Below are positions 4,916 to 20,998 of a stretch of DNA of 64,000 bases, piece by piece. How positions within the stretch are numbered: the first letter of the stretch is position 1; each line of letters starts with the position of its first letter. The stretch comes from Bacilli bacterium (GTDB lineage Bacteria > Bacillota_I > Bacilli_A > RFN20 > CAG-826): contig JAFUHI010000009.1 of assembly GCA_017468925.1 (NCBI GenBank), positions 360,820-424,819 of the forward strand, written 5' to 3'. The notes below the pieces were generated by a model. That model saw only the letters and a list, made by a program, of their open reading frames with translations, searched no databases and was not told where the DNA came from. The translations under genes and the position numbers were made by a program.

Positions 4916-5642
4916 TGATTTTGGTTTCAGCAAGACAATTACGCTGGCCATCTTAGATTGCTTCAAAAAAGGAATCATTACAACAACAACGGCGTGTGTA
5001 AACGGCCCTGATTTTTTGGAATCAGCCAAAATGATTAAAGGTACTTTGTTTGAGAAAAAAGTCGGTTTACACATTAACATAACGGAAGGGGAACCGCTAA
5101 CAGAGAAAATAAAAGACGTAAAATGGCTTTGTAAAGATGGCAAATTCATTGGCTTCCCAAAAAGAAACCACATCTTCTCAAAAAAAGATAAAAATGCGAT
5201 TTATGAAGAAATAAAAGAGCAGTTCAAAGCCTTTAAAAGCACCGGTTTGGAAATAAATCATGTTGATTCACACAACCACATTCACAACGCGCCAGGGATC
5301 TTCAATTTAATTTTAAAAATCATGAAGGAAGAGGGTGTTGAAAAAATTAGGATATTTAGAAATACAGGAAGCATCCCGTTTTATAAAAAAATTTATAAAG
5401 TAATGATGAATAAGAGAATTGAAAAAAATAGTTACTCAAGTTTCATGGGGTCTTTTGAAGACTTGAAGCTAGACTGGAAGAAAGAAAAAGATTCTATTTA
5501 TGAGTTGATGATTCATCCAGATTATGATTCCGCAGGAGAACTAATAGACAGAGAAAATGAAGACTATAGCCTTCCTATTGGAAAAAAGATTGAAGAACTG
5601 ATTGGATTCATTAAGGAAAAAAATATTAAAATTATAAAATAA
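4896..5642 (+). CDS. YdjC/ChbG-family carbohydrate deacetylase
   Basis: NADDFG, GLHIN, HVDSHNHIH, ELMIHP; start moved to ATG 4896 after GGAGG. Confidence 0.88.
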   Translation: MLWVNADDFGFSKTITLAILDCFKKGIITTTTACVNGPDFLESAKMIKGTLFEKKVGLHINITEGEPLTEKIKDVKWLCKDGKFIGFPKRNHIFSKKDKNAIYEEIKEQFKAFKSTGLEINHVDSHNHIHNAPGIFNLILKIMKEEGVEKIRIFRNTGSIPFYKKIYKVMMNKRIEKNSYSSFMGSFEDLKLDWKKEKDSIYELMIHPDYDSAGELIDRENEDYSLPIGKKIEELIGFIKEKNIKIIK

Positions 5643-5646
5643 AACT

Positions 5647-6462
5647 ATGAAAAAAATAGGACCGGATGAGCAAAGAAAATTATTGTTTGATCTTCTTACT
5701 GAGGTGGATGTTTTTTGCAAAAAAAATAATATCAGGTATTTTCTAGATTCTGGCACTCTTCTCGGCGCCATCCGCCATAAGGACTTTATTCCATGGGATG
5801 ACGATATTGATATCTGTATGCCTAGACCTGACTATGACAGATTTATAAAAATCACAAACAGTACACCAATTTCTGACAATATTTACGTCCTAAAAGAAAA
5901 AGAAGCCTTGTTTTGTTATATCAAGGTGTGTGATAAGAGAGTTGCGCTAATTGAATATCCTCAAACGTTGAGAATGGAAATAAACTTATACATCGATATC
6001 TTTCCAAAAGACGGTCTGCCAAACAACGAAAGAAAGGCCAAAAGACATGGCCAGAAAGTGCTTTTTTACAACAAGGTTTACTGGTTCAACAAATATTCTG
6101 TGAAAGTCTGGAAAAAAAGCAAAAACAAACTCAAAAAAATTATTGCTTATATTTGCTATCCATTTTGCCATGATAAGTTGTGGCCATTGAATAAAGCGAT
6201 TAGGCTTGCAAGGAAATATAGATACGAAGATAGCGAATATGTTTCTTCCTTGCTCGCTGGCGGGTGCAGAGGAAGAATAAGAAAGTCTTGTTTTTGCAAA
6301 GAAACAATGGTTACATTCCATAATCGTCAATTTCCTGCGCCAATTGGATATGATGAATATTTGCGTGAACTTTATCGAGACATAAACGACGGAGATTACA
6401 TGACTCTGCCGAATGATTGCGATAAAATCAAGCATGAATGTGAAATTTACTGGAAAGAATAA
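5647..6462 (+). CDS. licD: LicD-family phosphotransferase
   Basis: GTLLGAIRHKDFIPWDDDIDICMPRPDY, IDIFP.D. Confidence 0.92.
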   Translation: MKKIGPDEQRKLLFDLLTEVDVFCKKNNIRYFLDSGTLLGAIRHKDFIPWDDDIDICMPRPDYDRFIKITNSTPISDNIYVLKEKEALFCYIKVCDKRVALIEYPQTLRMEINLYIDIFPKDGLPNNERKAKRHGQKVLFYNKVYWFNKYSVKVWKKSKNKLKKIIAYICYPFCHDKLWPLNKAIRLARKYRYEDSEYVSSLLAGGCRGRIRKSCFCKETMVTFHNRQFPAPIGYDEYLRELYRDINDGDYMTLPNDCDKIKHECEIYWKE

Positions 6463-6475
6463 GGAGGGGGACAGA

Positions 6476-7189
6476 ATGAATTACGCGCTAATTTTCGCCG
6501 GAGGGACCGGTCAAAGAATGAACACAGTTTCTTTGCCAAAACAGTTCTTAAAGGTACATGGTGCCCCAATTATCGTTCATACCATCAGACATTTTCAGAA
6601 ATGCCCAAGCATAGATGGCATCGTTGTTGTCTGCATAAAAGAATTCATTGGATTGATGAATGAACTAAAGGAACAGTATGGTTTGAATAAGGTTATGTCC
6701 GTTATTGAGGGTGGAGATACTGGTCAGGCTTCAATTATGAATGGGCTTCTCTTTTTGAAATCGCTAGCGAACCAAGATGATATAGTGCTTATCCACGATG
6801 GAGTACGCCCATTAATTAATCAAGAAACCATTATAAAAAACATAGAATGCGTAAAGAAAAACGGAAACTGCATTACCACAACAAAATCGACCGAGACAAT
6901 TGTTATAACGGATGGAGACAATGTGACCGGAACTATTAATAGAGATAATTCTAAGTTTGGCAGAGCGCCTCAAAGTTTTATTTTGAAAGACATTTTGAAA
7001 GCGCATATCTCTTCTAAAGAAAAAGGGTTATCTTTTATTGACTCTGCCACAATGATGTCTCATTTTGGGTTTAAACTCTTTACCGTCGATGGCCCTGTGA
7101 ATAACATAAAAATAACAAGCCCGATCGATTATTTTATTTTCAAGGCCATTTTGGATGAGGCGGAAAGCGAGCAAATAAAATTTTTGTGA
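6476..7189 (+). CDS. tarI: IspD/TarI-family alditol-phosphate cytidylyltransferase
   Basis: IFAGGTGQRM, LPKQFL, IHDGVRP, NIKITSP.D; ATG 6476 after AAGGAGG. Confidence 0.85.
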   Translation: MNYALIFAGGTGQRMNTVSLPKQFLKVHGAPIIVHTIRHFQKCPSIDGIVVVCIKEFIGLMNELKEQYGLNKVMSVIEGGDTGQASIMNGLLFLKSLANQDDIVLIHDGVRPLINQETIIKNIECVKKNGNCITTTKSTETIVITDGDNVTGTINRDNSKFGRAPQSFILKDILKAHISSKEKGLSFIDSATMMSHFGFKLFTVDGPVNNIKITSPIDYFIFKAILDEAESEQIKFL

Positions 7190-7190
7190 T

Positions 7191-8252
7191 ATGGATACCG
7201 CGAAATTAGATGAATACGATATTACATCCAAAAGGCTATATGACGAAAAGATAGCTACTTTTTTGGAAAATAAAACTATTTTTATAACAGGTGCAACCGG
7301 GCTTATTGGAACTCAAGTCGGGAAAAGCCTTATTAGATATAGAAGACAATACGGAGGCAAATTTAAGATTGTTCTCCAAGCCCGTAATGTTGAGAAACTT
7401 ATGAATCGATATAAAGAAGATTTGGTCGAAGAAGGTGTTTATGTGGTTTTGGGAGATATCAGAGACATGATTATCTTTGATGGCAAAGTGGATTATATCA
7501 TTCATTGTGCAAGCAACACTTCATCGGCTTTTTTTGTCACCAATCCAGTTGAAACTATAGATATACTGGTTTCCGGAACGAAAAACGCCTTGGAATTCGC
7601 CAAAGAGAAAAGAGTGAAAGGTTTCCTTTATTTATCCACGCTTGAGGTATATGGAGATGTGTTTGATGATGCTGTCGCTATTGATGAATCCGCATTTCAT
7701 TATTTGGATTTCTTGAGCGTTAGAAGCAGTTATCCGGAAGGAAAAAGAATGTGTGAGTGTTTGTGTTCATCCTACTATCACGAATATGGCGTCCCAATTC
7801 TCATTGCCAGATTAACTCAAACAATCGGCAGTGATATTGAACCATATGACAATAGAGTTTTTGCCGAATTTGCAAGATGCTCCGTAAAAGGGAAAGATAT
7901 TGTTCTGAAAACAGCGGGTGAAACGGTGCGAAGTTATTGCGATGTTATCGATGGAACGGTCGCCCTATTTTATATTCTTTCAAAAGGTGAATTTGGAAAT
8001 GCATACAACGTGGCCAACAATGCTACCATTTGTAGCATTATGCAGTTGGCTGAATTATTTCGCTCATTGAGCAAATATAATATTAATATCGTGTTTGATC
8101 GTAGCGCGAACGCTCGCAAGCTCGGATATAATAATGATATAAAAATAAGACTCGACACATCGAAGATTGAGTCGCTTGGCTGGAAACCAAGCTATAGTCT
8201 TAAAGACACCGTGCTTAGATTGATGAAAGGTTTGGCTCTTAATGGTGATTAA
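7191..8252 (+). CDS. NAD-dependent epimerase/dehydratase (extended SDR), likely CDP-alditol synthesis
   Basis: ITGATGLIG, STLEVYG, YPEGK (YxxxK); adjacent to the TarI- and LicD-like genes. Confidence 0.85.
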   Translation: MDTAKLDEYDITSKRLYDEKIATFLENKTIFITGATGLIGTQVGKSLIRYRRQYGGKFKIVLQARNVEKLMNRYKEDLVEEGVYVVLGDIRDMIIFDGKVDYIIHCASNTSSAFFVTNPVETIDILVSGTKNALEFAKEKRVKGFLYLSTLEVYGDVFDDAVAIDESAFHYLDFLSVRSSYPEGKRMCECLCSSYYHEYGVPILIARLTQTIGSDIEPYDNRVFAEFARCSVKGKDIVLKTAGETVRSYCDVIDGTVALFYILSKGEFGNAYNVANNATICSIMQLAELFRSLSKYNINIVFDRSANARKLGYNNDIKIRLDTSKIESLGWKPSYSLKDTVLRLMKGLALNGD

Positions 8253-9426
8253 TGTTGGCTATTTCGTCGAAACACCAGTCGCCCATAATCTCACTGGCGG
8301 ATCTAGGTCTTTCTTGGAGTTGATTTTGAGATTGAAAAATGATGGAGTGGTTCCATTCGTTGTCGTTTCTGAAAAATGGAAATTGACCGACATTCTGAAA
8401 AAAAATGGAATTAAATTCTGTGTTGCCAAATCTTTCAGGCCTTTTGTTTCTGTCGAAAAGCCCGTTTTTTTATTTCGTATCAGATATTTGGTAAAACAAT
8501 TTTTTAACTATTTCGCTTATTTAAAAGCGAAGAAATTTTTCAAAGAAAACAAAGTTGAGATTATTCATATTAATAGTCAATTTGCGGGTATTTATGGCGC
8601 GAGAGTTGCAAAAAAACTCCATACGCCGTACGTCTATCATATAAGGGAATTTTTGGACAAGGGATTTGGATTAAGATTTTTTAATGAAAAGAAGGCGTTT
8701 AGAGCGATTGATGGAGCCAATAAAATCATTGCCATCTCTACTTCAATCGAAAAATATAGAGCGGACATCCATTCTCCCGGAAAAGTCGTTAAGATCTATA
8801 ATGGACTGAATTTTTCGGGCCTACCCAAGAACGAAAAAAAAGCAGGCGATAAGTTTTTGTCTCCTTGCGTCAACATGTGTATTGTTGGGAGAGTGTGTGA
8901 ATTCAAACGCCAATTGGATGCGATTAAGGCGACGGAATTATTATTCAAAAAATATCAAATTGAAGCTAAACTGCATATAATAGGATGCGAATGCAATGAC
9001 GAATATGAGAAGTCTTTAAGGAGATATGTGGAAGACAATGGCCTCTGTGATATGGTTAATTTTGTTCCTTTTCTAAACGACCCGTTAAGCAAGATTCAAG
9101 ACTTCGATATTGGGCTTATTTGTTCTGAAGGGGAGGCCTTCGGCCGCGCAACAATAGAATATTTTGCATCAAATTTACTTGTTTTTGGGGCTAATTCCGG
9201 CGCCACGCCAGAATTAATAAACAATAACGAAGATGGATATCTGTTTGAGTTGGGAGACTATGAGGAACTTGCTTTATTGATTAAAGAATCGATTGAAAAC
9301 CCAGAACATTCACGCGAAATGATTGCGCGAGGTTACATGAAGGCCTTGAGTTTATATTCATTGGAAAAAACCGCAAAAGAGGTTCTAAAATTGTACAATG
9401 ATATTTTGGGGCGAAGTCAGAAGTGA
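8242..9426 (+). CDS. Glycosyltransferase family 4
   Basis: GGSRS, HIRE, VGRV...K, EAFGRATIE. Confidence 0.92.
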   Translation: MVINVGYFVETPVAHNLTGGSRSFLELILRLKNDGVVPFVVVSEKWKLTDILKKNGIKFCVAKSFRPFVSVEKPVFLFRIRYLVKQFFNYFAYLKAKKFFKENKVEIIHINSQFAGIYGARVAKKLHTPYVYHIREFLDKGFGLRFFNEKKAFRAIDGANKIIAISTSIEKYRADIHSPGKVVKIYNGLNFSGLPKNEKKAGDKFLSPCVNMCIVGRVCEFKRQLDAIKATELLFKKYQIEAKLHIIGCECNDEYEKSLRRYVEDNGLCDMVNFVPFLNDPLSKIQDFDIGLICSEGEAFGRATIEYFASNLLVFGANSGATPELINNNEDGYLFELGDYEELALLIKESIENPEHSREMIARGYMKALSLYSLEKTAKEVLKLYNDILGRSQK

Positions 9427-10868
9427 AAAGAGATAGCGTTAAGGTAAATTTTATTTTTCAACTGGTTTATCAGTTTGCTCTTTTGATTTTGCCGTTAATT
9501 ACATCGCCCATAGTGACACGTGCTTTGGGCGATACTGGATTAGGAAATTATGCATATATCAATAGTATCGCGTATTATTTTTTGATTGTTTGTAATCTAG
9601 GGATAGCGAAATATGGTCAAAGACTGATTGCGTCAAACCGAGAAGATGATACGAAATTAAGAAAATCATTTTGGAGTCTTTTCGCTACTCATTCAGCAGT
9701 CTCTCTCTTGTCAATAACCGCTTATATTTTCTTTGTATCATTGTTTGTCAGAGACAATGTGAATATCTATTGGCTTAATCTTTTGTATATTGCTTCTGCG
9801 ATGTTTGATGTAACGTGGTTATTTTATGGGTTAGAAAACTTCAAGAGCGTCGCTTTAAAAAATCTTGCCATAAGAATCGTCTGTTTTATCTTTATATTGA
9901 TTTTTGTCAAAACAAAAAGCGATCTTTGGATTTATGCTCTTGTGCAATTCGGTAGCATTCTGCTCGGAAATCTTGCTCTTTTCCCGTTTGTTTTTAAAAA
10001 CATCAAGCCGGTTAAGTTTTCTTTTAAAGAATGTCTCGTTCACTTCAAACCAATGCTTGTTTTGTTTGTTTCTGTGCTCGCCGTTACGTTATACACCGTT
10101 TTTGATAAGACATTGCTTGGCATTTTAACGACGAAAGAAAATGTTGCCTATTATGAATATGCCAACAAGATTATAGACATCCCTAAGGCATTTATAGTTA
10201 TCATTGGCACCGTCATGTTTCCTAAAGCGTGCGCAGCAGCGAATCGTAGCGACATAATCACCCAGAAAAAATACGCAAATTATTCATATATGATGGTAGC
10301 ATTTATTGCCTTTGGCTCTATTTTTGGCTTGCTTGGCATTGGCAAATTATTCGCCGAAGTTTATTACGGTCGGGATTTTGTTGAATCGGGCAATGTTATA
10401 TTAATGCTGTGTCCAATTATATTGACGGTTGGATTGGGCGATGTCGTTCGAAGTTTGTTTTTGATTCCACAAAAGAAAGACACCATATACGTAATTTCAA
10501 TATGTCTAAATGCGGCATTAAATCTTTTGCTGTCGTATTTGCTGATTCCGGTAATTGGAATTGGCGGCGCAGTAGTTGGAACAATTGCCGCAGATGCGTT
10601 TGGACTAATTTTTCAATCGATAGTATGCAGGAAATATATTGAGTTTAAAAACGTTTTTAAGCCTATTTTTATATATTTAGTGTGCGGAGTTCTTGCTTTT
10701 GGGATAATGAGAACAATCGATGTGATCGCAGCCCCTAAACAAATCATTTTGCTAATAAAATTTTTTGTCGGCTTCTTGTCATATACCATTTTGTCTGGGG
10801 TTTTGACTGTTTTTTTCTTCCCAGAATTATCTGGAAAAATACTTGTTTTTGCAAAAAGAAAAAAATAA
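9423..10868 (+). CDS. wzx: Wzx polysaccharide flippase
   Basis: Polytopic membrane protein; LPLITSPIVTRALG, WLFYGLENF, DKTLLG motifs. Confidence 0.9.
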   Translation: MKRDSVKVNFIFQLVYQFALLILPLITSPIVTRALGDTGLGNYAYINSIAYYFLIVCNLGIAKYGQRLIASNREDDTKLRKSFWSLFATHSAVSLLSITAYIFFVSLFVRDNVNIYWLNLLYIASAMFDVTWLFYGLENFKSVALKNLAIRIVCFIFILIFVKTKSDLWIYALVQFGSILLGNLALFPFVFKNIKPVKFSFKECLVHFKPMLVLFVSVLAVTLYTVFDKTLLGILTTKENVAYYEYANKIIDIPKAFIVIIGTVMFPKACAAANRSDIITQKKYANYSYMMVAFIAFGSIFGLLGIGKLFAEVYYGRDFVESGNVILMLCPIILTVGLGDVVRSLFLIPQKKDTIYVISICLNAALNLLLSYLLIPVIGIGGAVVGTIAADAFGLIFQSIVCRKYIEFKNVFKPIFIYLVCGVLAFGIMRTIDVIAAPKQIILLIKFFVGFLSYTILSGVLTVFFFPELSGKILVFAKRKK

Positions 10869-10897: not shown

Positions 10898-13738
10898 ATG
10901 CCAGGGTGCTGCATGTTATTTTTTGAAAAAGTCAGGCAAAGAATAAAAGTTTGGTTGTTGAAGATAAAAGAAAGCTTTATCGACTCGTTTCCGTCTGAAT
11001 ATTTAAGTTTTGGCAAGAATAAAAAATTTGCTTTTGTCGCTTGTTATATCACAATGCTTCTTGCCGTGTTTGGTACCGTGTTATTTCAGGCGCCTAACTT
11101 TATAGATTGGAGTTTAAATACATATTTCATTTTCATTTGGATTGCGCTGGCAGTTTTGCTTTTTATTTTTGATTATAAAAAATTTATTTTTTCTTTTTTT
11201 CGAAGTTTTGTTTTTTTGATTCCATTTTTGTTATATTTGTCAATTGCTGTAGCATTTGGAATTAACGCATATTCTAGCGAGTTAACTAGATACATTCTTT
11301 TGTCGTTCTTTATTCTAATTCTGGGTTCTTCTTTTGCGCCTTATATAAATAGCAGGAATAGGAGATGGATTTTCGGTTCCTTCTCTCTAGCTGCATTTTT
11401 TCTTGCACTTTTAACTTATATTTTGGTCCTAAGGGGAACTGATTTAAGCAGTCCAACTTATGCGTATGAAAGCAAAAACTCTACAGGACCCATTTTGTTA
11501 TGCGCTTCTGTCTTCTTGTTTTTTAGCTCTACATCAAGCAAATTTCTCCACAGAATTCTTAGATGGCTTGGGGCTCTATTTTTTATAGTAATGATTGCAA
11601 TAATGAAATGCAGAGCAGTTTTGGTTGCTGCCCCGTTCGTTTATCTTGTAGTTTTTTTGTACACAAAGCCGACAAACGTCCAAATAACTATTGTTTTTTC
11701 TATTGTTATGTTGGCCATAATATTGATTTTTTCCATACCTTCAATCAGAGAAACGATTATTGATAATATTTTGTTCAATAACAAGACGAATTTAGATAGC
11801 CTTTCATCCGGGAGAATCTCATCGATTATCAAGGCGTTTGAGATGTTCAGACCATTCCTTGGCAGTGGCGATACTTATGTGGATTGCTTCCCGGTGCAAC
11901 TCATTTGTAGTTTCGGAATTTTTGGTTCCATTATGCTTTTGCCATTTATTGGATTGCGTTTTTATGCGCTTTACTTGGCAAAAAAACGTGAAAACAACAG
12001 GGCAAATTTTTATTTATTATTAATTTTAACTATTTTCTTTATGATGAATTCACTTTTGGAGGGTCATGGTGCATTTGGTCCAGGTGCAAGATCATTTGTT
12101 TACTGGCTTGTCATAGGTTTTCATATTGGCAGAACTCGTTTAATGCCATTGACAAATCAATGTGAGAAACTATGTGTAAAGACCACTCCGGATATAGTTT
12201 TTACAGCACTTTCTGCTCTTTTAGTTGTTTTGACATCAGCCATTTCTGTAATACCCAATGCCTTTAGTAGTTTATCTTTGAAAGTTTACGATAGAATAGA
12301 CCGCTCTGTAGTCTCTGGCGAATTTGTCGCACCAACTTCTATTTCGGTAGAGGGTCCTAATAAGTTGTGCATTGGTCAAACTATAAAATTAAATGCTGTC
12401 ATTTATCCAGAAAACGTTTCTGATTGTGGGCATCAATGGGAATCGTGGTCGGCAGGCAATGTTTTAACCATAAACAAAGACACCGGTGAGATAACTGGAA
12501 TCGGGACCGGAAGCGTGACTGTCAATGTCATATCGTTATCCGATAGAAAAATACAATCTTCGAGAGTCGTTAGTGTAGTGCGTCCAGATGATTTTATATT
12601 TCCTGAATACACAATTAGTGTTGAAAAAAACTTAATGATGATAGGCGATAAAATGGAGATAGTATACGACAGAAATACAATTTCAAACCCAGAATGGTTG
12701 TTATTCTCATCCAGCGACAAAAGCGTTGCATCCGTTGATGAACACGGTGTTATAACGGCAGCCGGAAGCGGCGATTGTTTTATTTCATCTCAGCTAAAGA
12801 TTGGCAATAAGATAAAATCAAATGATATTTTGATTTCTGTTTCTGATGAAACAATAACCCCAGTTACGTCGATTGCTTTTGATGTCCCTAATGAAATCTA
12901 TCAATATGAGCCGCTTTCTTTGGAAACCAGATTAAATGAAGGCGCATCCAACACCGGAGTCAAATATAGTATTTCCGGCGTGCCCTATTCTTTCGAGAAT
13001 GGCAAATTAATACTAAAAAAAGGTGGAGAAGCAACCGTGACAGCCTCATCAATCAGTAATCCAGAGGTTGTTCTGACAAAAAGTATTAAAGTGCTGAAAA
13101 ATGAGCCCGTTAAGATCATCTTGGAACCTATTGATTGGTTGTACATCAACAACAAATACAAACTAAACATTGATGTGCAATACGAAAGCGGGATTGTGAG
13201 AAGAGCAACAAAAGATGAAGTAGTTACGGAATCTGCCCGCGTTTCTTTTGGAAAGAATGGAATTTGCGACGATGGATTCACTTTGTGCGCTATGTCGTCT
13301 GGTTATGCTCAATTTACATTCCGTTCCAAAGAAACCATTGGTTTGGCAAAAAGATTTAGTTTCAGCGTCAAAAAGGTTCCGTTCGAGCAAAATGTCATCT
13401 CGGCAGAAAGTTTTGGGCTGTTTGTTTTTTCCACAATCTTTAGCATTTTTGCTTTTGTGAGTTTGATGATTAAGGGTAAAAAACGGCATGTTTTTCTTGT
13501 TTTGCTCTTCGCTTTCTCCCTTGGCGCTCAACTGCTACTTGTTTTTTTGCAAATAAAAACCTGGAATCCTTTGTATTTAATATCGCTTATGATGCCATTA
13601 ATTCCTTGTATTATCATAACAGTTGCGTTTAGAAAGAAAAAATGGTCGCTTGGATATGATTCTAGATTGCCAGATTTTGAAGAATTTGAGCGAAAAGAAT
13701 TAGAAAAAAAGGATTTTTATTTCGAAGTGACAATATAA
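10898..13738 (+). CDS. O-antigen ligase/Wzy-like polymerase fused to Ig-like (Big_2-type) domains and C-terminal TM helices
   Basis: N-terminal multi-TM region with KCRA, LSSGRI, PFLGSG; then PTSISV...WES...GEITGIGTGSVTV and SSSDKSVASVDEHGVITAAGSG repeats; about 3 terminal TM segments. Confidence 0.7.
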   Translation: MPGCCMLFFEKVRQRIKVWLLKIKESFIDSFPSEYLSFGKNKKFAFVACYITMLLAVFGTVLFQAPNFIDWSLNTYFIFIWIALAVLLFIFDYKKFIFSFFRSFVFLIPFLLYLSIAVAFGINAYSSELTRYILLSFFILILGSSFAPYINSRNRRWIFGSFSLAAFFLALLTYILVLRGTDLSSPTYAYESKNSTGPILLCASVFLFFSSTSSKFLHRILRWLGALFFIVMIAIMKCRAVLVAAPFVYLVVFLYTKPTNVQITIVFSIVMLAIILIFSIPSIRETIIDNILFNNKTNLDSLSSGRISSIIKAFEMFRPFLGSGDTYVDCFPVQLICSFGIFGSIMLLPFIGLRFYALYLAKKRENNRANFYLLLILTIFFMMNSLLEGHGAFGPGARSFVYWLVIGFHIGRTRLMPLTNQCEKLCVKTTPDIVFTALSALLVVLTSAISVIPNAFSSLSLKVYDRIDRSVVSGEFVAPTSISVEGPNKLCIGQTIKLNAVIYPENVSDCGHQWESWSAGNVLTINKDTGEITGIGTGSVTVNVISLSDRKIQSSRVVSVVRPDDFIFPEYTISVEKNLMMIGDKMEIVYDRNTISNPEWLLFSSSDKSVASVDEHGVITAAGSGDCFISSQLKIGNKIKSNDILISVSDETITPVTSIAFDVPNEIYQYEPLSLETRLNEGASNTGVKYSISGVPYSFENGKLILKKGGEATVTASSISNPEVVLTKSIKVLKNEPVKIILEPIDWLYINNKYKLNIDVQYESGIVRRATKDEVVTESARVSFGKNGICDDGFTLCAMSSGYAQFTFRSKETIGLAKRFSFSVKKVPFEQNVISAESFGLFVFSTIFSIFAFVSLMIKGKKRHVFLVLLFAFSLGAQLLLVFLQIKTWNPLYLISLMMPLIPCIIITVAFRKKKWSLGYDSRLPDFEEFERKELEKKDFYFEVTI

Positions 13739-13877
13739 TTTAAATGCGTTTGGCGCTAACGTTAACTACATAATTCTTGTCTTTTGTTTGCGCGTCTATT
13801 GCTCGTCGTTAATGGGACAGCGTATTGGAAGAACACTTGAACAATTTGCAAAAAAGAACAAAATTGCTTTTAAAATA

Positions 13878-14914
13878 TAGAAGTATTTACAAAAAGGTTG
13901 CTCACTTTTTCTGATTATATCTATCTTTTATGCGATAAGTGATTTTAGATTGGAAGCATTTTAATTCCAATTGAGTCACTTTTTCATTGATGTTATATGC
14001 ATTGATAGTTGATCTAAAGACAATCCAATTGAGATAATCTTGCAAATTCTCGCTTCTTGAACCGATATGGATAATCATATTTCTTTCTATCTCTCCGCAG
14101 AAAGAATTGATGGGTTGCATATGTTTTTTTTGGATTCTCTGGCAACCGATTTCCATATTTCATCAGTCGCATTCAATTCTTTTATAAGTTTATCGTGAGA
14201 AAATATTCCATCATGAATAATGTGACTGCCAGGGGCGATATGTTTGCCATATGAACCAAGGCACTGCTTGCTTGATATATGCCCTCTTCCCACTATTTCG
14301 GCATATTTATTGCCGTTGTTGTCTATCGCGCAAGCAACCACTATTTGGTTAATGGATTGCCCTCGATATTTAAGACCATTAGCTTTTGTGACCAGATATC
14401 TTTTATTGACCGGTATTAATTTCTCATCGATCCAAACTGTGTTTGATAACATTGTTTCCTTTATCATTTGGCCCGCGACTTTATATATTTTCATTCTCCA
14501 CATATAGGCAGTTCTGCTGGATATGGATAAAACATCCATGATCGTTTCTATCTTGCTATCATCAATGACCAATATTATCAGCTTCCTTAATGTCTCTTTG
14601 TCTAGTTTCGCTGATGAAAACATTGTTTTAGTCGCTTCAAGAAATATTCTTTCGCATGACGAACATTTATATCTCTGTTTGCCTTCTCTTTTTCCGTTTT
14701 TCTTAAAAATGAAATCGCCGCAGAATGGGCAAAATAACTTCTTTGAATCCATCAAAAAAGTTCCTTTCTAAAACGTAAGCAACCATCAACGAAAGGAACT
14801 GTGCTAGCAAAACCAATATTGATGGCTGCCTACGTTCGTTTTACTAGCAAACTCATTATACAACAAAAGATTGCTGTCCTTAATCTATCAGCAACCTTTT
14901 TGTAAATACTTCTA
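13878..14914 (-). mobile_element. IS1595-family insertion sequence
   Basis: Perfect 25-bp terminal inverted repeats TAGAAGTATTTACAAAAAGGTTGCT at 13878-13902 and 14890-14914 enclosing a transposase. Confidence 0.9.
13902..14755 (-). pseudogene. IS1595-family transposase split by a -1 frameshift at an A8 run (pseudogene or programmed frameshift)
   Basis: CPFC...RYKCSSC zinc finger, HTH, WIDE and HDG catalytic motifs in 14087-14755; C-terminus (HMQPINSFC...LQDYLNW) in 13902-14156. Confidence 0.85.
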
Positions 14915-14964
14915 AAAATAAAACAATAATTCATTTTAATGATTTAAATTGATAAAATTTTCTT

Positions 14965-15462
14965 ATGAAAGAAGTATATAAAAATCTATTTGTTGGATCA
15001 CAATTTGATTATGAATGTAATCCTAAAATGTTCGATGATTGGTTTGTGGTTCATGCCTGTAAAGAACCTTATCACAGAAAAGCTTTAGGTTATACTGGGC
15101 GATCTGCGCCAAAGGACGACCCACGTTATTTATTTTTATATGATGAAAAGAACCATTTGATTTTAAATATGGTTGATACTGATTCTCCAGAATTCTTTCG
15201 AGACGAAATGATTAATGAAGCCATTTTTTATGTTATAGGAGGATTAAAAAAGGGGAAACGTGTTTTAATACATTGCAATCAAGGTGAGTCCAGAGCTCCA
15301 TCTCTAGCACTCCTTTTATTAAATCAATTAGGAGTGTTGTCTTGTGACTTTGATGAGGCAATTAAAGTATTTGTCAAATTTTATCCAGATTATATGCCAA
15401 AACTTGGAATTTTAACTTACGTGAGAAGGAGATGGGTCCATGAAACTAAGAATCGAAATTAA
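14965..15462 (+). CDS. Dual-specificity / protein-tyrosine phosphatase family protein
   Basis: NLFVGS N-terminus; VLIHCNQGESRAPS (HCX5R) active site. Confidence 0.88.
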   Translation: MKEVYKNLFVGSQFDYECNPKMFDDWFVVHACKEPYHRKALGYTGRSAPKDDPRYLFLYDEKNHLILNMVDTDSPEFFRDEMINEAIFYVIGGLKKGKRVLIHCNQGESRAPSLALLLLNQLGVLSCDFDEAIKVFVKFYPDYMPKLGILTYVRRRWVHETKNRN

Positions 15463-17620
15463 CAAATGCCATGGTATTTATTCCATCAATGAAACATTAG
15501 ATTTTAATGATAAACCAGTGATTATTCATGCTCCAAATGGGACATTTAAAACCTCTTTTTGCAAAACTTTAGTTGAATGGATAAACGGCAATGATTCATA
15601 TGATGTTGTTACAGGCGTTATCGGGAGCCGAATTGTAGAAATTAATGGCAAAGCAGCTAAACCTGATGAATTTGAAGTGTTTACTGATTTTTCTCATTCT
15701 CAACCATTAAGCAATTCAAAAGGAATTTTGTTAAATAATTCTTTGAGAACGGCCTACGATGCAGCGTTGTCAACTTACGAAAGTCTTAGAGATGGACTTT
15801 TGAATGCTGTTAGTAAAAAATATAAAATCAGTAAAATAGATATGGTTATTTGCAGAGTTTTTAATGCAAATGATGTGGATGTAGCTTTAAAGAAAATCTA
15901 CTTTAAATTATCTAGAAAAAAGAAACTAAAAGTGTTTACAGGCAATTATTCGGATTATTTTTCTGATACCATAGGGAAAAATATTTCAAAGGATCCATCT
16001 AAACAAATAATAGAAAAATATCAAAAGATATACAACAAGACTCTAAAAGAGGCTTTCATAAAGGAAGGAGTGTTTGATTTTTATAATTTAATAAATGTCT
16101 CCGAATCTCTTTCCGAAAATAATTATTTCGATGCAGGGAACATAATAGTATTAAATGGTGAAAAACCTATAACTACAACAAAAGAATTGAATTCATTTAT
16201 CGACAGCATTAAAAATGGTATTTCCAAAGATTCCGAACTTCAACAAGCTTTTATTGGGTTAGAAACCGATTTTTCAAAAAGAGGAATGAATAAAGTTGCT
16301 GAAAACATAAAGTCAGACCCTTCAATGGCTTTGCTTTATAAGAATTATTCTTCATTTGAAGAATCATATTTGCTTGACAAGTTCAATTCATTTAAATCTG
16401 ATCTTATTGATATAAATAAACAATATAAAATAAGTAGGAAGACCATTAAAAAAATAAAAAGTGAAGCTAAAAAAGACGATGAAATATGGCGAGATGTTAT
16501 CGACACATTCGATAATCGCTTTAGAATGCCGTTTGATATTGTTATTGCTGACACACCATCTGCTGTTCTTGGAATTGATGATGTTGCTTATACGTATAAG
16601 TATAGAGTCAACGGCAACACGTACGATGTTGATGAAAGCGTGCTAATTAGCGATGTTTTGTCAGAAGGAGAGTCTAGGGTGTTTAGTCTGTTAAATACTA
16701 TTTTTAGAATCAAAGAATTAGAAAAAAATGGAAAGCATAAAATTTTAGTGTTTGATGATGTGGCAGATGCTTTTGATTATTCTAACAAGCACGCCATAAT
16801 CGAATATTTAAGAGAGATTTCGCTAAATCCTTTGTTTGATGTTCTTGTTTTGACTCATAATTTTGATTTTTATAGACATTTTGGAAATAGAATTAGCGGA
16901 AGAGGATCATGCAAATTTGCATCTAGTGATGGATATGGGAATATCGCTTTTAGTGATGGAGAATATTTAAAAAATCTCTATACAAATTATTTGCGACAAA
17001 AAGCGATGGCACCTAATTCCCTTAATCATGCAATTGCAATTGTTCCGTTTGCAAGAGCGGCAGAAGAAATAATTAATCCAAATTATGAAACCAATGATAC
17101 GATCTATGATTTATTAACAAATATTTTGCATTATAGACCAAATAGTGGAGCAAGAATTACTGGCAATTCTTATGCTAAAAAGGTTGGGAAATTGTTGAAT
17201 ATGCAGCTCACCTCACTCATTGGGCACAAAACTAGATTGTATAAAATAATATATAATCAAGCCATACAAATTGCGGCATCGACTACGATAGACCAAAAAA
17301 TAGAGGAGAAGATTTTACTTTCGATGGCCATGAGAATTTTTGGTGAAAAATACATGATATATCACCTAAGAAATACTGGTGTTATAACTAACTCTTTCTG
17401 CTTGAATAATGTTCAGTTTGGGCAACTACTCGATTTATTCAGGAATAACAGCGGTAATAAACATGCAATTGATACGTTAGATTTAATAAGTATTTTTACT
17501 CCTATCGAAATACATGTTAATGGTTTTGCTTACGAACCGTTGATTGATTATTCAATTGTTAGACTTAGAAAACTATTTAAAGACCTGGATATGTTGCTTG
17601 GAAAAACACTGAGACCTTGA
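15440..17620 (+). CDS. SMC/RloC-like ABC ATPase (AAA_13-like), candidate anti-phage protein
   Basis: Walker A APNGTFKTS, long helical insert, signature LSEGE, Walker B LVFDD, H-loop LTHNFDF; C-terminal extension of about 230 aa. Confidence 0.75.
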   Translation: MKLRIEINKCHGIYSINETLDFNDKPVIIHAPNGTFKTSFCKTLVEWINGNDSYDVVTGVIGSRIVEINGKAAKPDEFEVFTDFSHSQPLSNSKGILLNNSLRTAYDAALSTYESLRDGLLNAVSKKYKISKIDMVICRVFNANDVDVALKKIYFKLSRKKKLKVFTGNYSDYFSDTIGKNISKDPSKQIIEKYQKIYNKTLKEAFIKEGVFDFYNLINVSESLSENNYFDAGNIIVLNGEKPITTTKELNSFIDSIKNGISKDSELQQAFIGLETDFSKRGMNKVAENIKSDPSMALLYKNYSSFEESYLLDKFNSFKSDLIDINKQYKISRKTIKKIKSEAKKDDEIWRDVIDTFDNRFRMPFDIVIADTPSAVLGIDDVAYTYKYRVNGNTYDVDESVLISDVLSEGESRVFSLLNTIFRIKELEKNGKHKILVFDDVADAFDYSNKHAIIEYLREISLNPLFDVLVLTHNFDFYRHFGNRISGRGSCKFASSDGYGNIAFSDGEYLKNLYTNYLRQKAMAPNSLNHAIAIVPFARAAEEIINPNYETNDTIYDLLTNILHYRPNSGARITGNSYAKKVGKLLNMQLTSLIGHKTRLYKIIYNQAIQIAASTTIDQKIEEKILLSMAMRIFGEKYMIYHLRNTGVITNSFCLNNVQFGQLLDLFRNNSGNKHAIDTLDLISIFTPIEIHVNGFAYEPLIDYSIVRLRKLFKDLDMLLGKTLRP

Positions 17621-17687
17621 TAGATTGTATTGTTACAGTCGGAAACTTTTTACTCATCTATAAAACTGGTATTTATATAGTCGGTGA

Positions 17688-18149
17688 AAGACAACGGCCA
17701 TCGCTGAAAAAATACCAAATGGAAAATATAGTCGATATTCCGACGATATCACCGTATCATCTTCCAAAAGAATACCAGTTAGTGTTCTCTGTGATATAGA
17801 AAATATCCTAGAAAATAATAAACTCATGATCAATCGCAAAAAAACACATTTTTCATCAAATGTTGATAATGTTTTGGTTACTGGCATTAGGATAAAAAGA
17901 AACGAATCTGTATCGTTGTCAACTTCATTTAAAAAAGATCTTAAAACAAGAATCTATCATAAGCTTAGATTTGGAAGCAATTCCGCGGAAAATGCATCGG
18001 TCTTGTTGGGCTTACTTAATTATTTAAAAATGATAGATATTCATTATTTTAACAAAATAAATGCAAAATATCTTTCGGAAGACGGTTTGACTTGCTGTGA
18101 ACAGCTTAAAAGAATAATCGCAACTGAGAAGCAAAAAAAGACTGTATGA
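17688..18149 (+). pseudogene. Retron-type reverse transcriptase, C-terminal half only (5' deleted)
   Basis: Open frame 17688-18149 reads ...KYSRYSDDITVSS (YSDD at 17736-17747)...INRKKT...VLVTGIRI...LLGLLNYLKMID; VTG is the retron region-Y signature; N-terminal RT motifs are absent. Confidence 0.8.
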
Positions 18150-18289
18150 TTTTCTAATATACAATTGTTTCGATAAAGAGAATGCCAGGCCATTTATATT
18201 GGTAAATTCTGTATCTAATAACATTTTGGAGAAAACTAAAGTATAGTAAAAAAATAGAATATAATAGATACAAAGATAATATTACTTTT

Positions 18290-18571
18290 ATGGTTGGAAC
18301 TATTACTGCGATATTTATTCTCGCGTTAGCGATTATTGGCTATGCCAACTTATATGTTCATAATCTTTTTTTGTTTTGCCTTTTGGTTGCAATTTTATTA
18401 GTGATTATAGATATATTTTTTAGCGTTTTTTGGATTGTTTTTAGATTAAAAACATATAAAAAAATGGTACCGCACGAACAAGTTGACTGTATTATGACAT
18501 TATTTATTAATGTAATCTCGCTCTTTTTTGCTATATTCGGAATAGTGTTTGTGACAATTTACCAGTTGTAA
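18290..18571 (+). CDS. Small hypothetical membrane protein (about 3 TM)
   Basis: 93 aa, three hydrophobic stretches. Confidence 0.55.
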   Translation: MVGTITAIFILALAIIGYANLYVHNLFLFCLLVAILLVIIDIFFSVFWIVFRLKTYKKMVPHEQVDCIMTLFINVISLFFAIFGIVFVTIYQL

Positions 18572-18644
18572 AAGAAGTGATTAAAAGGTTGTGGCACAAC
18601 CATTAATTGTTTTAAGGGCTCTAATTTGTTTTAATATGTGGTAG

Positions 18645-18878
18645 TTACCCTAGAAGCGCCTTCCCCGGTAACCGCTTTGAAATGGTGGGATTATCGTCTT
18701 TTTTACCATAGATACTTATAACAGGCATTTTGCATTTCTTTCTTAGTAGAATTATGGCTTCGGTCATCTCAGAAACATCGATAACTCCCTTATCGCATAA
18801 TTCTTCTAAGATATAAAGACAGATGTTATATTCGTAAGGGAGTTTCTTATCTAAGATAACCTTATCCTTATTGTGCAT
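18645..18878 (-). CDS. SHOCT-like small protein of the type found before serine recombinases
   Basis: Y...LYILEELCDKGVIDVSE...LRKK pattern; a conserved second copy at 20885-20977 supports coding status. Confidence 0.5.
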   Translation of the reverse strand: MHNKDKVILDKKLPYEYNICLYILEELCDKGVIDVSEMTEAIILLRKKCKMPVISIYGKKDDNPTISKRLPGKALLG

Positions 18879-18908
18879 AGTGGCGCCTGTTCCTTATGTG
18901 TCTATAAA
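18791..18908. repeat. Degenerate direct repeat, copy 1
   Basis: TATCGCATAATTCTTCTAAGATATAAAGACAGATGTT...GGGAGTTTCTTATCTAAGATAACCTTATCCTTATTGTGCATA aligns with 20890-20998. Confidence 0.85.
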
Positions 18909-19019
18909 TCCAATAATAAAAAGAATATTTCAAGTAATAATTTAATTAAGCGTCTATTAATAAATAGACATAAAAATGCCCATAAAGTATTATATTCAAG
19001 AAGAAATAAAGTATATATT

Positions 19020-19807: not shown

Positions 19808-20854
19808 ATGAGTGAGAGTAATTTAGAAAAAATATTAGCATTCCACGAGTTGGTAATGGGTAAAAGCGATGAATACAAAAAAGAAAAAGCCAAAGATTTT
19901 AACATTGATTTTGAAGAATATAAAAGACGAATAAAAGGTAAAGAAAAAGAAGCTGAATTTTTGATAATTATGCGCTCACTTAGAAGTGTGTCACATTTAG
20001 TTGCTTATGATGAAAGCTTGTCCAAAATAACAAATGAATTTACATCAGATTATGAAATTACCTTTAGAGATAACTACAAAATTTTGCTTGAGATAAAATC
20101 ATCTCACGAATTATCAAAAAGAATTATTTCTGGAGGGAATTTTGAAAAACGCCTCGATTTTGCTAAAAGCAAAAATATGCCATTAAGATTTGCCGTTTGC
20201 TTGGGTGGACATTGGGGTGTTTATACGTCTGATTATCTTAAATCCAAGAACTTTGTGTTGGATTATTCAGACACAATGAACGAAGATAATCTAAAAAAAT
20301 CTTGGCTTCAGAGCGAGTTTGGAACATGTTCATATGCATTTTTTAATAAAATTGAAATTATTAGCATTTATGAAAAAAACACCAAAAAAGGTTTGGGGAT
20401 TTTCTTTGAAGATTATGGAGAATTAATCGAATATCGAATTCTTCAAGATGGTAAAGAGGTATTTAAATGTAACAAGAACAATTCAACGAATTTGTTTGTT
20501 TCAATGTGTGTTGAAGCCATTCAAGATGAATTATCGAAAGACAATCATTATGTATATAAAAATGGAAATAAAACAAAAATAATAGAATTTAATACTAGAA
20601 AGCCATTATTAATACCAGAATACCGTTTTATATTATCGAGAATAAACCATTTATCTTTTGGACATGATAGCAGAGATGATGATCTATTTTTTGTGGCAAA
20701 ATCTTCACAAGAAGAATTTAATAATTATTCCGTTTCCTATATAAGATTTGCGCTTTCAACACTCGTTGACAAAGGGCTAAAGGTTTTTGTTGAGAGGGAC
20801 GGACTCTTATATAAATTTTCGCAATTTTCAAAAACGTTTTGGAATGTAAAATAA
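19808..20854 (+). CDS. Hypothetical protein with a predicted PD-(D/E)xK nuclease N-terminal domain
   Basis: GKEKE...SDYEI...LLEIKS motif spacing. Confidence 0.55.
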   Translation: MSESNLEKILAFHELVMGKSDEYKKEKAKDFNIDFEEYKRRIKGKEKEAEFLIIMRSLRSVSHLVAYDESLSKITNEFTSDYEITFRDNYKILLEIKSSHELSKRIISGGNFEKRLDFAKSKNMPLRFAVCLGGHWGVYTSDYLKSKNFVLDYSDTMNEDNLKKSWLQSEFGTCSYAFFNKIEIISIYEKNTKKGLGIFFEDYGELIEYRILQDGKEVFKCNKNNSTNLFVSMCVEAIQDELSKDNHYVYKNGNKTKIIEFNTRKPLLIPEYRFILSRINHLSFGHDSRDDDLFFVAKSSQEEFNNYSVSYIRFALSTLVDKGLKVFVERDGLLYKFSQFSKTFWNVK

Positions 20855-20884: not shown

Positions 20885-20977
20885 TTATATATCACATAAT
20901 TTTTCTGAGATATAAAAACAGATGTTGTTTTCATATGGGAGTTTCTTATTAAAGATAACCTTATTCTTATGATGCAT
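20885..20977 (-). pseudogene. Truncated paralog of the SHOCT-like gene
   Basis: MHHKNKVIFNKKLPYENNICFYISEKLCDI* versus MHNKDKVILDKKLPYEYNICLYILEELCDK... Confidence 0.7.
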
Positions 20978-20998
20978 ATTGGCTTATGTGTTTATAAA
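20890..20998. repeat. Degenerate direct repeat, copy 2
   Basis: TATCACATAATTTTTCTGAGATATAAAAACAGATGTT...GGGAGTTTCTTATTAAAGATAACCTTATTCTTATGATGCATA. Confidence 0.85.

Follow-up and report, generated by a model that had tools for sequence, protein, structure and literature searches.

A mobile phosphatase–ATPase cassette joined to the tail of a type II-A retron in a Bacilli genome

The window analysed here is a 64,000-nucleotide stretch of DNA from a Bacilli bacterium (NCBI GenBank assembly GCA_017468925.1, contig JAFUHI010000009.1, positions 360,820 to 424,819 of the forward strand). Its positions 14965–18149 hold three genes that an initial annotation, made from the sequence alone, had put forward as a defence module and a new retron architecture, in which a cysteine phosphatase, an RloC-like ABC ATPase and a damaged reverse transcriptase (RT) belong together. 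As a new type of retron this region is refuted. It is a composite, in which a mobile two-gene cassette lies against the tail of a retron; the three genes have no common system, and the cassette consists of the phosphatase and the ATPase only. What remains is a mobile unit of a phosphatase and a PDC-S46-family ATPase which, to judge from its sequence, appears to be a variant of a known candidate and of modest novelty. We consider it probable that this cassette is a defence unit.

The three co-oriented, closely packed open reading frames (ORFs) described in the initial annotation were confirmed, with their coordinates, on the forward strand (Table 1); the last of them is a 107-aa frame at 17826–18149. 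The phosphatase and ATPase genes overlap by 23 bp, and the RT-like frame is open from 17688, 67 nt past the ATPase stop codon.

Table 1. Features of the cassette and its two junctions, in window coordinates.
Feature	Position	Strand	Details
IS1595/IS1-type insertion sequence	13869–14923	−	Transposase ORF 14087–14755, 222 aa
Cassette upstream region	14914–14964	+	51 bp; holds TGATAAAAT at 14950–14958
DSP-fold cysteine phosphatase	14965–15462	+	165 aa; Pfam, alignment, AF2 model
PDC-S46-family SMC/Rad50-type ABC ATPase	15440–17620	+	726 aa
Cassette 3′-end element, junction with retron remnant	17625–17694	+	70 bp; blastn and run contigs
3′ remnant of type II-A retron RT	17697–18149	+	Codon 171 to stop; YSDD; no start before 17826
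Intergenic DNA behind ancestral retron	18150–18280	+	Same 587-bp blastn match to L214

The RT-like frame comprises the last 153 codons, the final 42%, of a retron RT. Its YxDD motif is present, as RYSDD, and yet the gene is more than damaged, since it covers only positions 167–288 of the 289 in the St85-family RT model NF038233 (4.4e-20, 71.6 bits against a cut-off of 235) and is start-less, the ORF listing giving no ATG, GTG or TTG between 17688 and 17826. Among the PADLOC models, RT_I-A (3.3e-14) and RT_II-A (8.4e-14) match it almost equally well, both over the C-terminal third of the model only, because the RTs of types I-A and II-A1 fall in one clade, as described in the main text of the retron classification (PMC7736814). 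No other RT-like match was found in this genome, which measures 1.66 Mb and is 79.6% complete.

Relatives of the remnant identify the retron from which it came. When 400 genomes of the same class were searched with it, 14 matched, the window's own included. The best match, 89% identical, lies in a 322-aa open frame of G379, a genome of the same family and another genus, where it forms part of an RT_II-A gene (321 aa, 5e-62) that overlaps an upstream NDT_II-A effector gene (1.2e-29). The same NDT_II-A and RT_II-A pair is found in G016, which belongs to the window's own genus. According to the main text of PMC7736814, II-A1 retrons carry an NDT and DNA-binding effector and include Retron-Sen2 (St85).

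At the nucleotide level, positions 7786–8371 of the G379 locus, L214, correspond to 17697–18280 of the window (89.8% over 587 bp, blastn). The RT gene of L214 starts at 7276, and homology with the window thus opens abruptly at RT codon 171. Comparison with L214 by blastn and tblastx gave no match in the window for the NDT gene, for RT codons 1–170 or for the 277 bp 5′ of the NDT gene, the expected site of the non-coding RNA (ncRNA); these three parts of the retron are gone from the locus. The window therefore resembles type II-A retrons such as Retron-Sen2/St85 in the models that its remnant matches and in the identity of that remnant to an RT behind NDT_II-A, and differs from them in having no full-length RT, no homologue of the upstream ncRNA region and no NDT effector, the partner of the intact orthologue. 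An Rfam search for msr-msd RNA was empty over 13500–19000, but equally empty on the intact loci L214 and L215, and is uninformative. Folding of the 286 nt 5′ of the NDT gene in G379 gave a long hairpin that is not significant (z −1.55, with 15 of 200 shuffles as good).

We conclude that the RT is very probably an unrelated relic. From its sequence, the piece is predicted to be non-functional, to have no role in the module and to be incapable of making multicopy single-stranded DNA (msDNA).

Public sequencing runs define the cassette independently of the retron. Part of the interval 14800–18300 occurs in 20 runs, with no RNA run listed among them and three that are possibly the source sample, and contigs were compared from four (X4, X6, X8 and X11) that come from four other studies, of an anaerobic digester, gut (2013), a landfill and sheep gut. 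In all four runs the contigs cover the window from 14913/14916 to 17644–17691. Depth over 17774–18207 is 0 in two runs and 0.5–0.8 in the other two, and the body of the insertion sequence (IS) that precedes the cassette is barely covered. A 72,081-bp contig of X11 carries 14914–17644 with 86 differences and one gap, between flanks that are unrelated to the window for 3197 letters downstream and 1055 letters upstream. The unit is accordingly a mobile two-gene cassette of ∼2.8 kb, from ∼14914 to ∼17695, with the RT piece and the IS outside it; its two overlapping genes could be transcribed together.

The two ends of the cassette are well marked. On the right, a 70-bp element is 87% identical to positions 9702–9771 of L214, an intergenic stretch that in G379 follows a different ATPase gene, and is single-copy in genome G000. 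The X4 and X8 contigs follow the window as far as 17652–17691 and part from it there, leaving a loose end at 17695, and the retron homology starts two bases past the element. On the left, the IS abuts the cassette exactly. Its inverted repeats (13869–13902 and 14890–14923) are 34 nt long and 88% complementary, with a perfect core of 25 nt; its transposase matches the NCBIfam models transpos_IS1595 (8.7e-16) and IS1_IS1595_Zn (5e-11), and a 67% identical copy is present in G033. The order of events at these junctions may have involved insertion, recombination or deletion.

An RT does not accompany the two cassette genes elsewhere. A hidden Markov model (HMM) built from 10 full-length RTs matched one of 168 ATPase and phosphatase loci and none of 36 viral loci (1/204 together), and the sole hit comes from G120, where a self-contained retron of the type XI RT-protease kind runs convergently towards the PDC-S46 gene from the opposite strand. 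In that locus (L252, G120:C1:574000–588000) the PDC-S46 gene occupies 5563–7704 (+) and the RT-protease 8246–9859 (−; 1e-133). For the RT, the chance juxtaposition that the initial annotation had named as its alternative is what the loci indicate. In G016, AbiH and a PDC-S06 ATPase follow the intact II-A retron as separate genes; the full order of this defence islet (L215, G016:C14:26000–40000) is DUF2971/PDC-S31, the NDT and RT genes of the retron, AbiH and the PDC-S06 AAA_13 ATPase. What links retrons to these ATPases is proximity within defence islets, not partnership. The shuffling of defence genes has created, as an artefact of a junction, the appearance of a new retron class, and this is a warning for the reading of defence islets from sequence alone.

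The ATPase is a full-length match to the PADLOC family PDC-S46 (PDLC05023), its residues 2–717 aligning with positions 3–716 of the 719 in the profile (1.2e-147, 491.6 bits), and a search of the whole genome gave the same match; the further PADLOC matches are weak ones to PDC-S06 and mad3 only. PDC-S46 is a predicted, single-gene phage-defence candidate. The AlphaFold2 (AF2) model (pLDDT 85.7) shows an ABC head of the SMC/Rad50 type, interrupted by a helical insert at residues ∼93–360, and an all-helical C-terminal domain at ∼513–724. Foldseek matched this model to the Smc head (5xei, 2.5e-6), cohesin, Rad50, Lamassu LmuB and retron I-A ATPases (such as 9n69_C), and VIA to 5h68_B (Z 15.4), Rad50 (3qku_A, Z 15.3) and PtuA (8ee4_A, Z 13.2). 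All of these are generic matches of the ABC head, and those to PtuA and the retron ATPases stand below those to Smc, cohesin and Rad50. The VIA list for the whole model is filled by ABC heads and hardly probes the C-terminal domain; a search of the ESM Atlas with residues 505–726 gave no usable match. Septu PtuA and the OLD-type ATPases of type I retrons are different in that no PtuA, ATPase-TOPRIM or OLD model matches the protein, and Pfam and PADLOC scans found no HNH or TOPRIM ORF near its gene.

The catalytic residues of the protein are intact, and alignment of the family shows invariant residues in several of its parts. They include K37 (Walker A), S408-G410-E411, D439-D440 and T472-H473-N474, and, within the C-terminal domain, R539, H564, K624, R632, H692, N694, E699 and D703; E543, in the sequence R539-x3-E543, is, like H564, invariant or nearly so. 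Comparison by hhalign with four AAA_13/PDC-S06 proteins gave a probability of 98.8% over residues 338–495 only, the part that contains the signature, Walker B and switch region. Pfam AAA_13 does not match the window protein at E 0.1 or better, and some members of its family carry a precomputed PF13166 assignment.

Close relatives of the ATPase are few. A cluster search gave 171 matches among 8000 candidates scored; among the 120 matches listed, four clusters are 68–96% identical to the window protein, six are 38–41% identical and the rest ≤30%. A genome collection holds 562 relatives, the best 80 of which are 25–31% identical, and no relative at the 38–41% level (P0005–P0010) was found in the genome or JGI collections. 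Of 399 genomes drawn from the phylum, 23 match, eight of them strongly besides the window's own. The genes around these distant relatives encode type I, III and ISP restriction-modification (R-M) systems, GmrSD, HEPN, DUF4238, RhuM, integrases, resolvases and transposases. Behind two of the distant PDC-S46 genes lies a gene for a calcineurin-like phosphoesterase (Metallophos) of ∼400 aa (L065, 10218–11435; L082, 10311–11486), an arrangement that recalls the Rad50-Mre11/SbcCD pairing. Three small genomes from the same class (L016, L017 and L020, from G137, G115 and G425) have a PDC-S46 frame that is open only when 4–9 in-frame TGA codons are read through, and their sequences suggest that these relatives use TGA for Trp (code 4); the genes of the window are open without readthrough.

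The upstream gene of the cassette encodes a cysteine phosphatase of the dual-specificity phosphatase (DSP) fold. Its HCX5R P-loop, correctly recognised at the outset, reads HCNQGESR (H103, C104, R110). Residues H103, C104, G107, S109, R110 and D71 are invariant in 23 sequences of 46–94% identity, as is a motif HACKEPxHR at residues 30–38, and D71 is likely to be the general acid. Pfam DSPc matches below its cut-off (6.6e-5, 23.2 bits against 33.5), and a profile comparison with the PDB gave DUSP16 (2e-6). The AF2 model (pLDDT 93.1) superimposes on DUSP16, DUSP8 and DUSP10 in Foldseek, with E-values from 4.4e-8 to 2e-7 and TM scores of 0.60–0.68. The protein thus shares with the DUSP/VH1 phosphatases (Pfam DSPc) its fold, its HCX5R P-loop and an Asp 33 residues upstream, and is distinguished from them by an identity of 13–21%, by the unusual P-loop C-N-Q-G-E-S-R, by the extra HACKEPxHR motif with its second Cys and by a setting in prokaryotic defence islands. 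With its catalytic residues intact the enzyme is predicted to be active, on a substrate that may be protein, nucleic acid or nucleotide.

The phosphatase belongs to a large family, with 802 matches in a 90%-clustered set. Among 1.84 billion representatives, 2224, 803 and 254 clusters match at E ≤ 1e-3, 1e-10 and 1e-30 respectively, the 254 being counted at 50% identity. PADLOC and NCBIfam hold no model for this family, and literature searches found no description of it in defence. A mainly phage-borne distribution, which the largely viral clusters of the Atlas had suggested, was rejected by direct scans that found 24 loci in 2.9 million viral contigs, five in 50,697 phage records and one in 72,556 plasmids.

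The neighbourhoods of the phosphatase were taken from the best 80 of at least 533 confirmed JGI metagenome loci. A co-directional ORF follows in 66 of the 80, with a gap of ≤30 nt in 31 of the 66, and 122 neighbours were scanned, 61 downstream (≥100 aa) and 61 upstream. Downstream, 44 of the 61 carry a Pfam family and 17 do not. HsdR-type proteins are found in six loci; AAA_13, Schlafen-AlbA_2 with HATPase_c_4, and DUF3644 in four each; AAA_15/AAA_21 and HAD in three each; Mrr, Abi_C, and Deaminase with HATPase_c_4 in two each. The window's own ATPase follows in one locus (L122, a 97% copy), and SMODS, SAVED-HNH, TIR-STAND, HamA, SLATT, PD-(D/E)XK, RhuM, cyclase, M78 peptidase, AAA, DUF6978, recombinase and oxidoreductase genes occur in one locus each. 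In PADLOC the AAA_13 proteins are classed as PDC-S06, and the DUF3644 protein that was scanned (L150) as PDC-S19. Upstream, 13 of the 61 neighbours are HsdS and seven are AbiTii; OLD-like and AAA_21 ATPases, SIR2, HerA, patatin, RES and SAVED also occur. Defence genes of many different kinds follow closely behind members of the phosphatase family, often within type I R-M operons. A small cysteine phosphatase family placed in this way 5′ of many anti-phage genes, and outside the PADLOC models, is a lead in its own right.

Some members of the family are longer proteins, in which the DSP domain is joined to Abi_C (two clusters), to a glycosyltransferase (P0267) or to a part of no recognised kind. 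The Abi_C-DSP proteins (P0241 and P0242, in L138 and L159) have 547 aa, with an N-terminal Abi_C domain of HEPN type and the family phosphatase at the C-terminus; their genes lie behind hsdS and ahead of a deaminase-HATPase_c_4 gene. A phosphatase-ATPase fusion was also sought, and no long form of the phosphatase aligns to the ATPase profiles. A trio of AbiTii protein, DSP phosphatase and HAD hydrolase recurs in four of the 80 loci (L132, L136, L168 and L170), and L165, L157, L142 and L178 are associated with these.

The window gene differs from its distant PDC-S46 relatives in being preceded by an overlapping DSP phosphatase gene. Of the module first proposed, there remains a two-gene unit of phosphatase and PADLOC-candidate ATPase; the RT is not a member. 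Related arrangements occur in the phosphatase family. An RloC-like ABC ATPase lies directly downstream of the phosphatase in L122, L125, L169, L175, L181, L193 and L197, and in degenerate form in L120, so that this pairing is seen in 7–8 of the 80 loci with ATPases of at least four subfamilies. For the ATPase cluster P0003 (69% identical to the window protein) and the phosphatase cluster P0125 (75%), the longest contig has the same length, 34,282 bp. This shared length hints, indirectly, that the pair persists at the divergence of P0003 and P0125. That the two proteins act in one pathway, instead of side by side, is slightly less than an even chance, and we hold this view only tentatively.

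We favour, with a probability of roughly 55%, the reading that the cassette is an anti-phage unit of the abortive-infection type, made up of a sensor-effector ATPase and an accessory phosphatase. The nucleotide-driven head of the ATPase would sense an infection cue, as in PrrC, RloC and other defence ABC ATPases, and the helical C-terminal domain, with its conserved residues R539, E543, H564, K624, R632, H692, N694, E699 and D703, would deliver the damage. The phosphatase would be a generic, portable accessory that many defence genes have recruited as an upstream operon partner. One role it might have is to strip the phosphates that phage kinases place on defence proteins. This is suggested by the kinase of phage T7, of Ser/Thr/Tyr specificity, which disarms defences by pervasive phosphorylation (PMC13645617, a phosphatase being mentioned in the text available only as a reagent). 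Alternatively it might trim the phosphate ends of nucleic acids cut by the effector, as the frequency of HEPN/Abi_C, AAA_13 and Schlafen-like genes among its neighbours suggests. A DSP linked to defence is in any case a testable candidate for a bacterial counter-move to a phage kinase, and the compact cassette, with its natural boundaries, offers a possible route to the first functional data on PDC-S46.

A broader form of this proposal is that the 160-aa DSP family is an undescribed and widespread accessory module of prokaryotic immunity, with PDC-S46 and its DSP a true two-component system. In that case the phosphatase would stand first in operons with unrelated effectors, and sometimes be fused to them, the effectors comprising RloC-like ABC ATPases, HEPN/Abi_C, Schlafen-like, Mrr, CBASS and TIR-STAND proteins and type I HsdR. 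Erasing the phosphorylation set by phage kinases would then amount to anti-anti-defence, and removal of terminal phosphates from cleaved RNA or DNA would leave repair ligases unable to reseal it. We think it unlikely that the proposal holds in this full form.

The analogy with RloC and PrrC, anticodon nucleases in which an ABC ATPase (Pfam AAA_13) is joined to a HEPN RNase, draws on several features of the ATPase: the ABC head with its signature, Walker B ‘DD’ and ‘LTHNFxF(Y/F)R’ switch region, the long helical insert in that head, an extra C-terminal domain, surroundings of R-M and other defence genes, and a conserved R-x3-E...H pattern. RloC is different in its CXXC zinc hook, which the 726-aa protein does not have, the sole invariant Cys of the family being C10; the AAA_13 neighbours of other phosphatases have a CXXC (C295/C298).

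Several observations weigh against the abortive-infection reading. The first concern the proposed effector domain. The C-terminal domain of the ATPase cannot be aligned with the nuclease domain of AAA_13/RloC-type proteins (probability 0.13%), and the original label ‘RloC-like’, while right for the head, is unproven for this domain. In the text available of PMC2610378, the anticodon nuclease (ACNase) triad has an E-to-H spacing of x31 in PrrC and x36–52 in RloC; in the ATPase the pattern is R-x3-E-x20-H, and its spacing of 20 is outside the published range. The name PDC-S46 was not found in a literature search, nor in the main text, supplements aside, of the preprint that treats PDCs as untested candidates from a ‘guilt-by-embedding’ set (Payne 2024, 10.1101/2024.01.29.577857).

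The second group concerns the pairing. No phosphatase was found by HMM in any of 100 distant PDC-S46 loci (80 from genomes, eight from the phylum sample and 12 viral), and therefore the ATPase family does not need one; DSPc is likewise absent from the 79 PDC-S46 neighbours scanned. On a phosphatase tree of 80 rows (79 loci, L122 being too short, and the window protein; 71 of the 80 sequences distinct), the label for an AAA_13-type neighbour is scattered, with five changes for six rows. Shuffled labels behave alike (mean 5.7, with 120 of 500 shuffles as low), and the pairing, although it recurs, therefore does so no more than frequent shuffling would produce. All copies that show both genes are ≥95% identical, or their context is unseen, and they therefore do not establish that the pair is deeply conserved. 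The phosphatase also stands alone between hsdS and hsdR in six loci, and its partners number dozens and are unrelated, a pattern to be expected of an independent gene no less than of an accessory. Finally, the fusion P0267 joins a DSP to a glycosyltransferase, and the window itself is a polysaccharide-synthesis locus.

Several of the observations on pairing speak for a different explanation, that the cassette holds two independent single-gene defence candidates in one operon, which travel together only as a result of cassette shuffling. The phosphatase would then have its own target, a phage protein or nucleotide, and the ATPase would act alone, as in its distant relatives. The catalogue treats PDC-S46 as a single-gene candidate, and the co-directional neighbours of its distant members contain no conserved family, the largest cluster being present at four of 80 loci. 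On the other side, the genes overlap by 23 bp, with the Shine-Dalgarno sequence of the ATPase inside the phosphatase gene, and the pair is intact in five genomic contexts. The phosphatase recurs directly 5′ of RloC-like ABC ATPases of several subfamilies, and the Abi_C-DSP fusions show that a DSP domain can be part of an effector protein. We regard independence as a serious possibility, and as the less probable of the two accounts.

A role outside defence has also been considered, in which the phosphatase would serve the polysaccharide locus, perhaps together with the ATPase, for example in the control of capsule export by tyrosine phosphorylation or in the dephosphorylation of a sugar or lipid carrier. 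The flanks of the window hold a flippase, a polymerase-like membrane protein with Big_2 domains, a GT2 glycosyltransferase and oxidoreductases (ORF and Pfam scan); the X11 cassette lies ∼1 kb from a GT2-like stretch; and the intact G379 retron locus is also situated among sugar-nucleotide genes. Against this, no glycosyltransferase or capsule gene was seen among the 122 scanned phosphatase neighbours, which are dominated by R-M, Abi, CBASS-type and ATPase genes, and the ATPase family is a defence candidate found in the company of R-M genes and mobile elements. The cassette itself moves and lies between an IS and a retron relic, and polysaccharide loci are simply a landing place for such cargo in this lineage. 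We find such a role very improbable.

A retron that unites RT, msDNA, RloC-like ATPase and HCX5R phosphatase, its RT damaged only here, is scarcely credible: the co-oriented and closely spaced genes, the use of SMC-family ATPases by type I retrons, with retron I-A chains among the Foldseek matches of the head, and the retron beside the G120 gene speak for it, but the RT orthologue sits in a complete NDT-type II-A retron, the homology breaks exactly at the cassette end, contigs from four studies carry the cassette but not the RT piece, the one RT in 204 loci is a self-contained type on the opposite strand, the structural matches to retron ATPases are generic, and the word ‘phosphatase’ is absent from the main text of PMC7736814, supplements aside.

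The putative signals for expression of the cassette lie in and just before the phosphatase gene. The extended −10 sequence TGATAAAAT that had been proposed as the promoter of all three genes is present at its place, and its −10 hexamer ends 6 nt ahead of the phosphatase ATG. It says little, because the motif TGNTAWAAT occurs in the window at chance frequency (14 times, against 13.97 ± 3.56 in shuffles) and a promoter scan of 13700–19000 (23 sites, against 27.9 ± 6.3 in shuffles) placed no site at 14950–14958; a promoter function can only be presumed from the sequence. There is no Shine-Dalgarno sequence before the phosphatase ATG, and a leaderless phosphatase transcript is possible. The ATPase has a strong one, AAGGAG at 15426–15431, 8 nt ahead of its ATG.

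Between the retron relic and the sugar genes there are two further ORFs, of 348 aa (19808–20854) and 93 aa (18290–18571, membrane-like). They belong to no Pfam, NCBIfam or PADLOC family, and both are within the part of the window lowest in GC (0.29–0.30). A 94-nt direct repeat, 85% identical between its copies at 18791–18884 and 20890–20983, is found ahead of the GT2 and oxidoreductase genes, and its first copy overlaps the start of a 77-aa ORF on the minus strand (18645–18878). In the genome of the window both full copies are those just given, with a 26-nt partial copy on contig C11 (89%, E 0.0045). The same element occurs in L214 at 5888–6013 (84–89% identical), just 5′ of the intact G379 retron, and it may mark the boundaries of cassettes in polysaccharide and defence islets.

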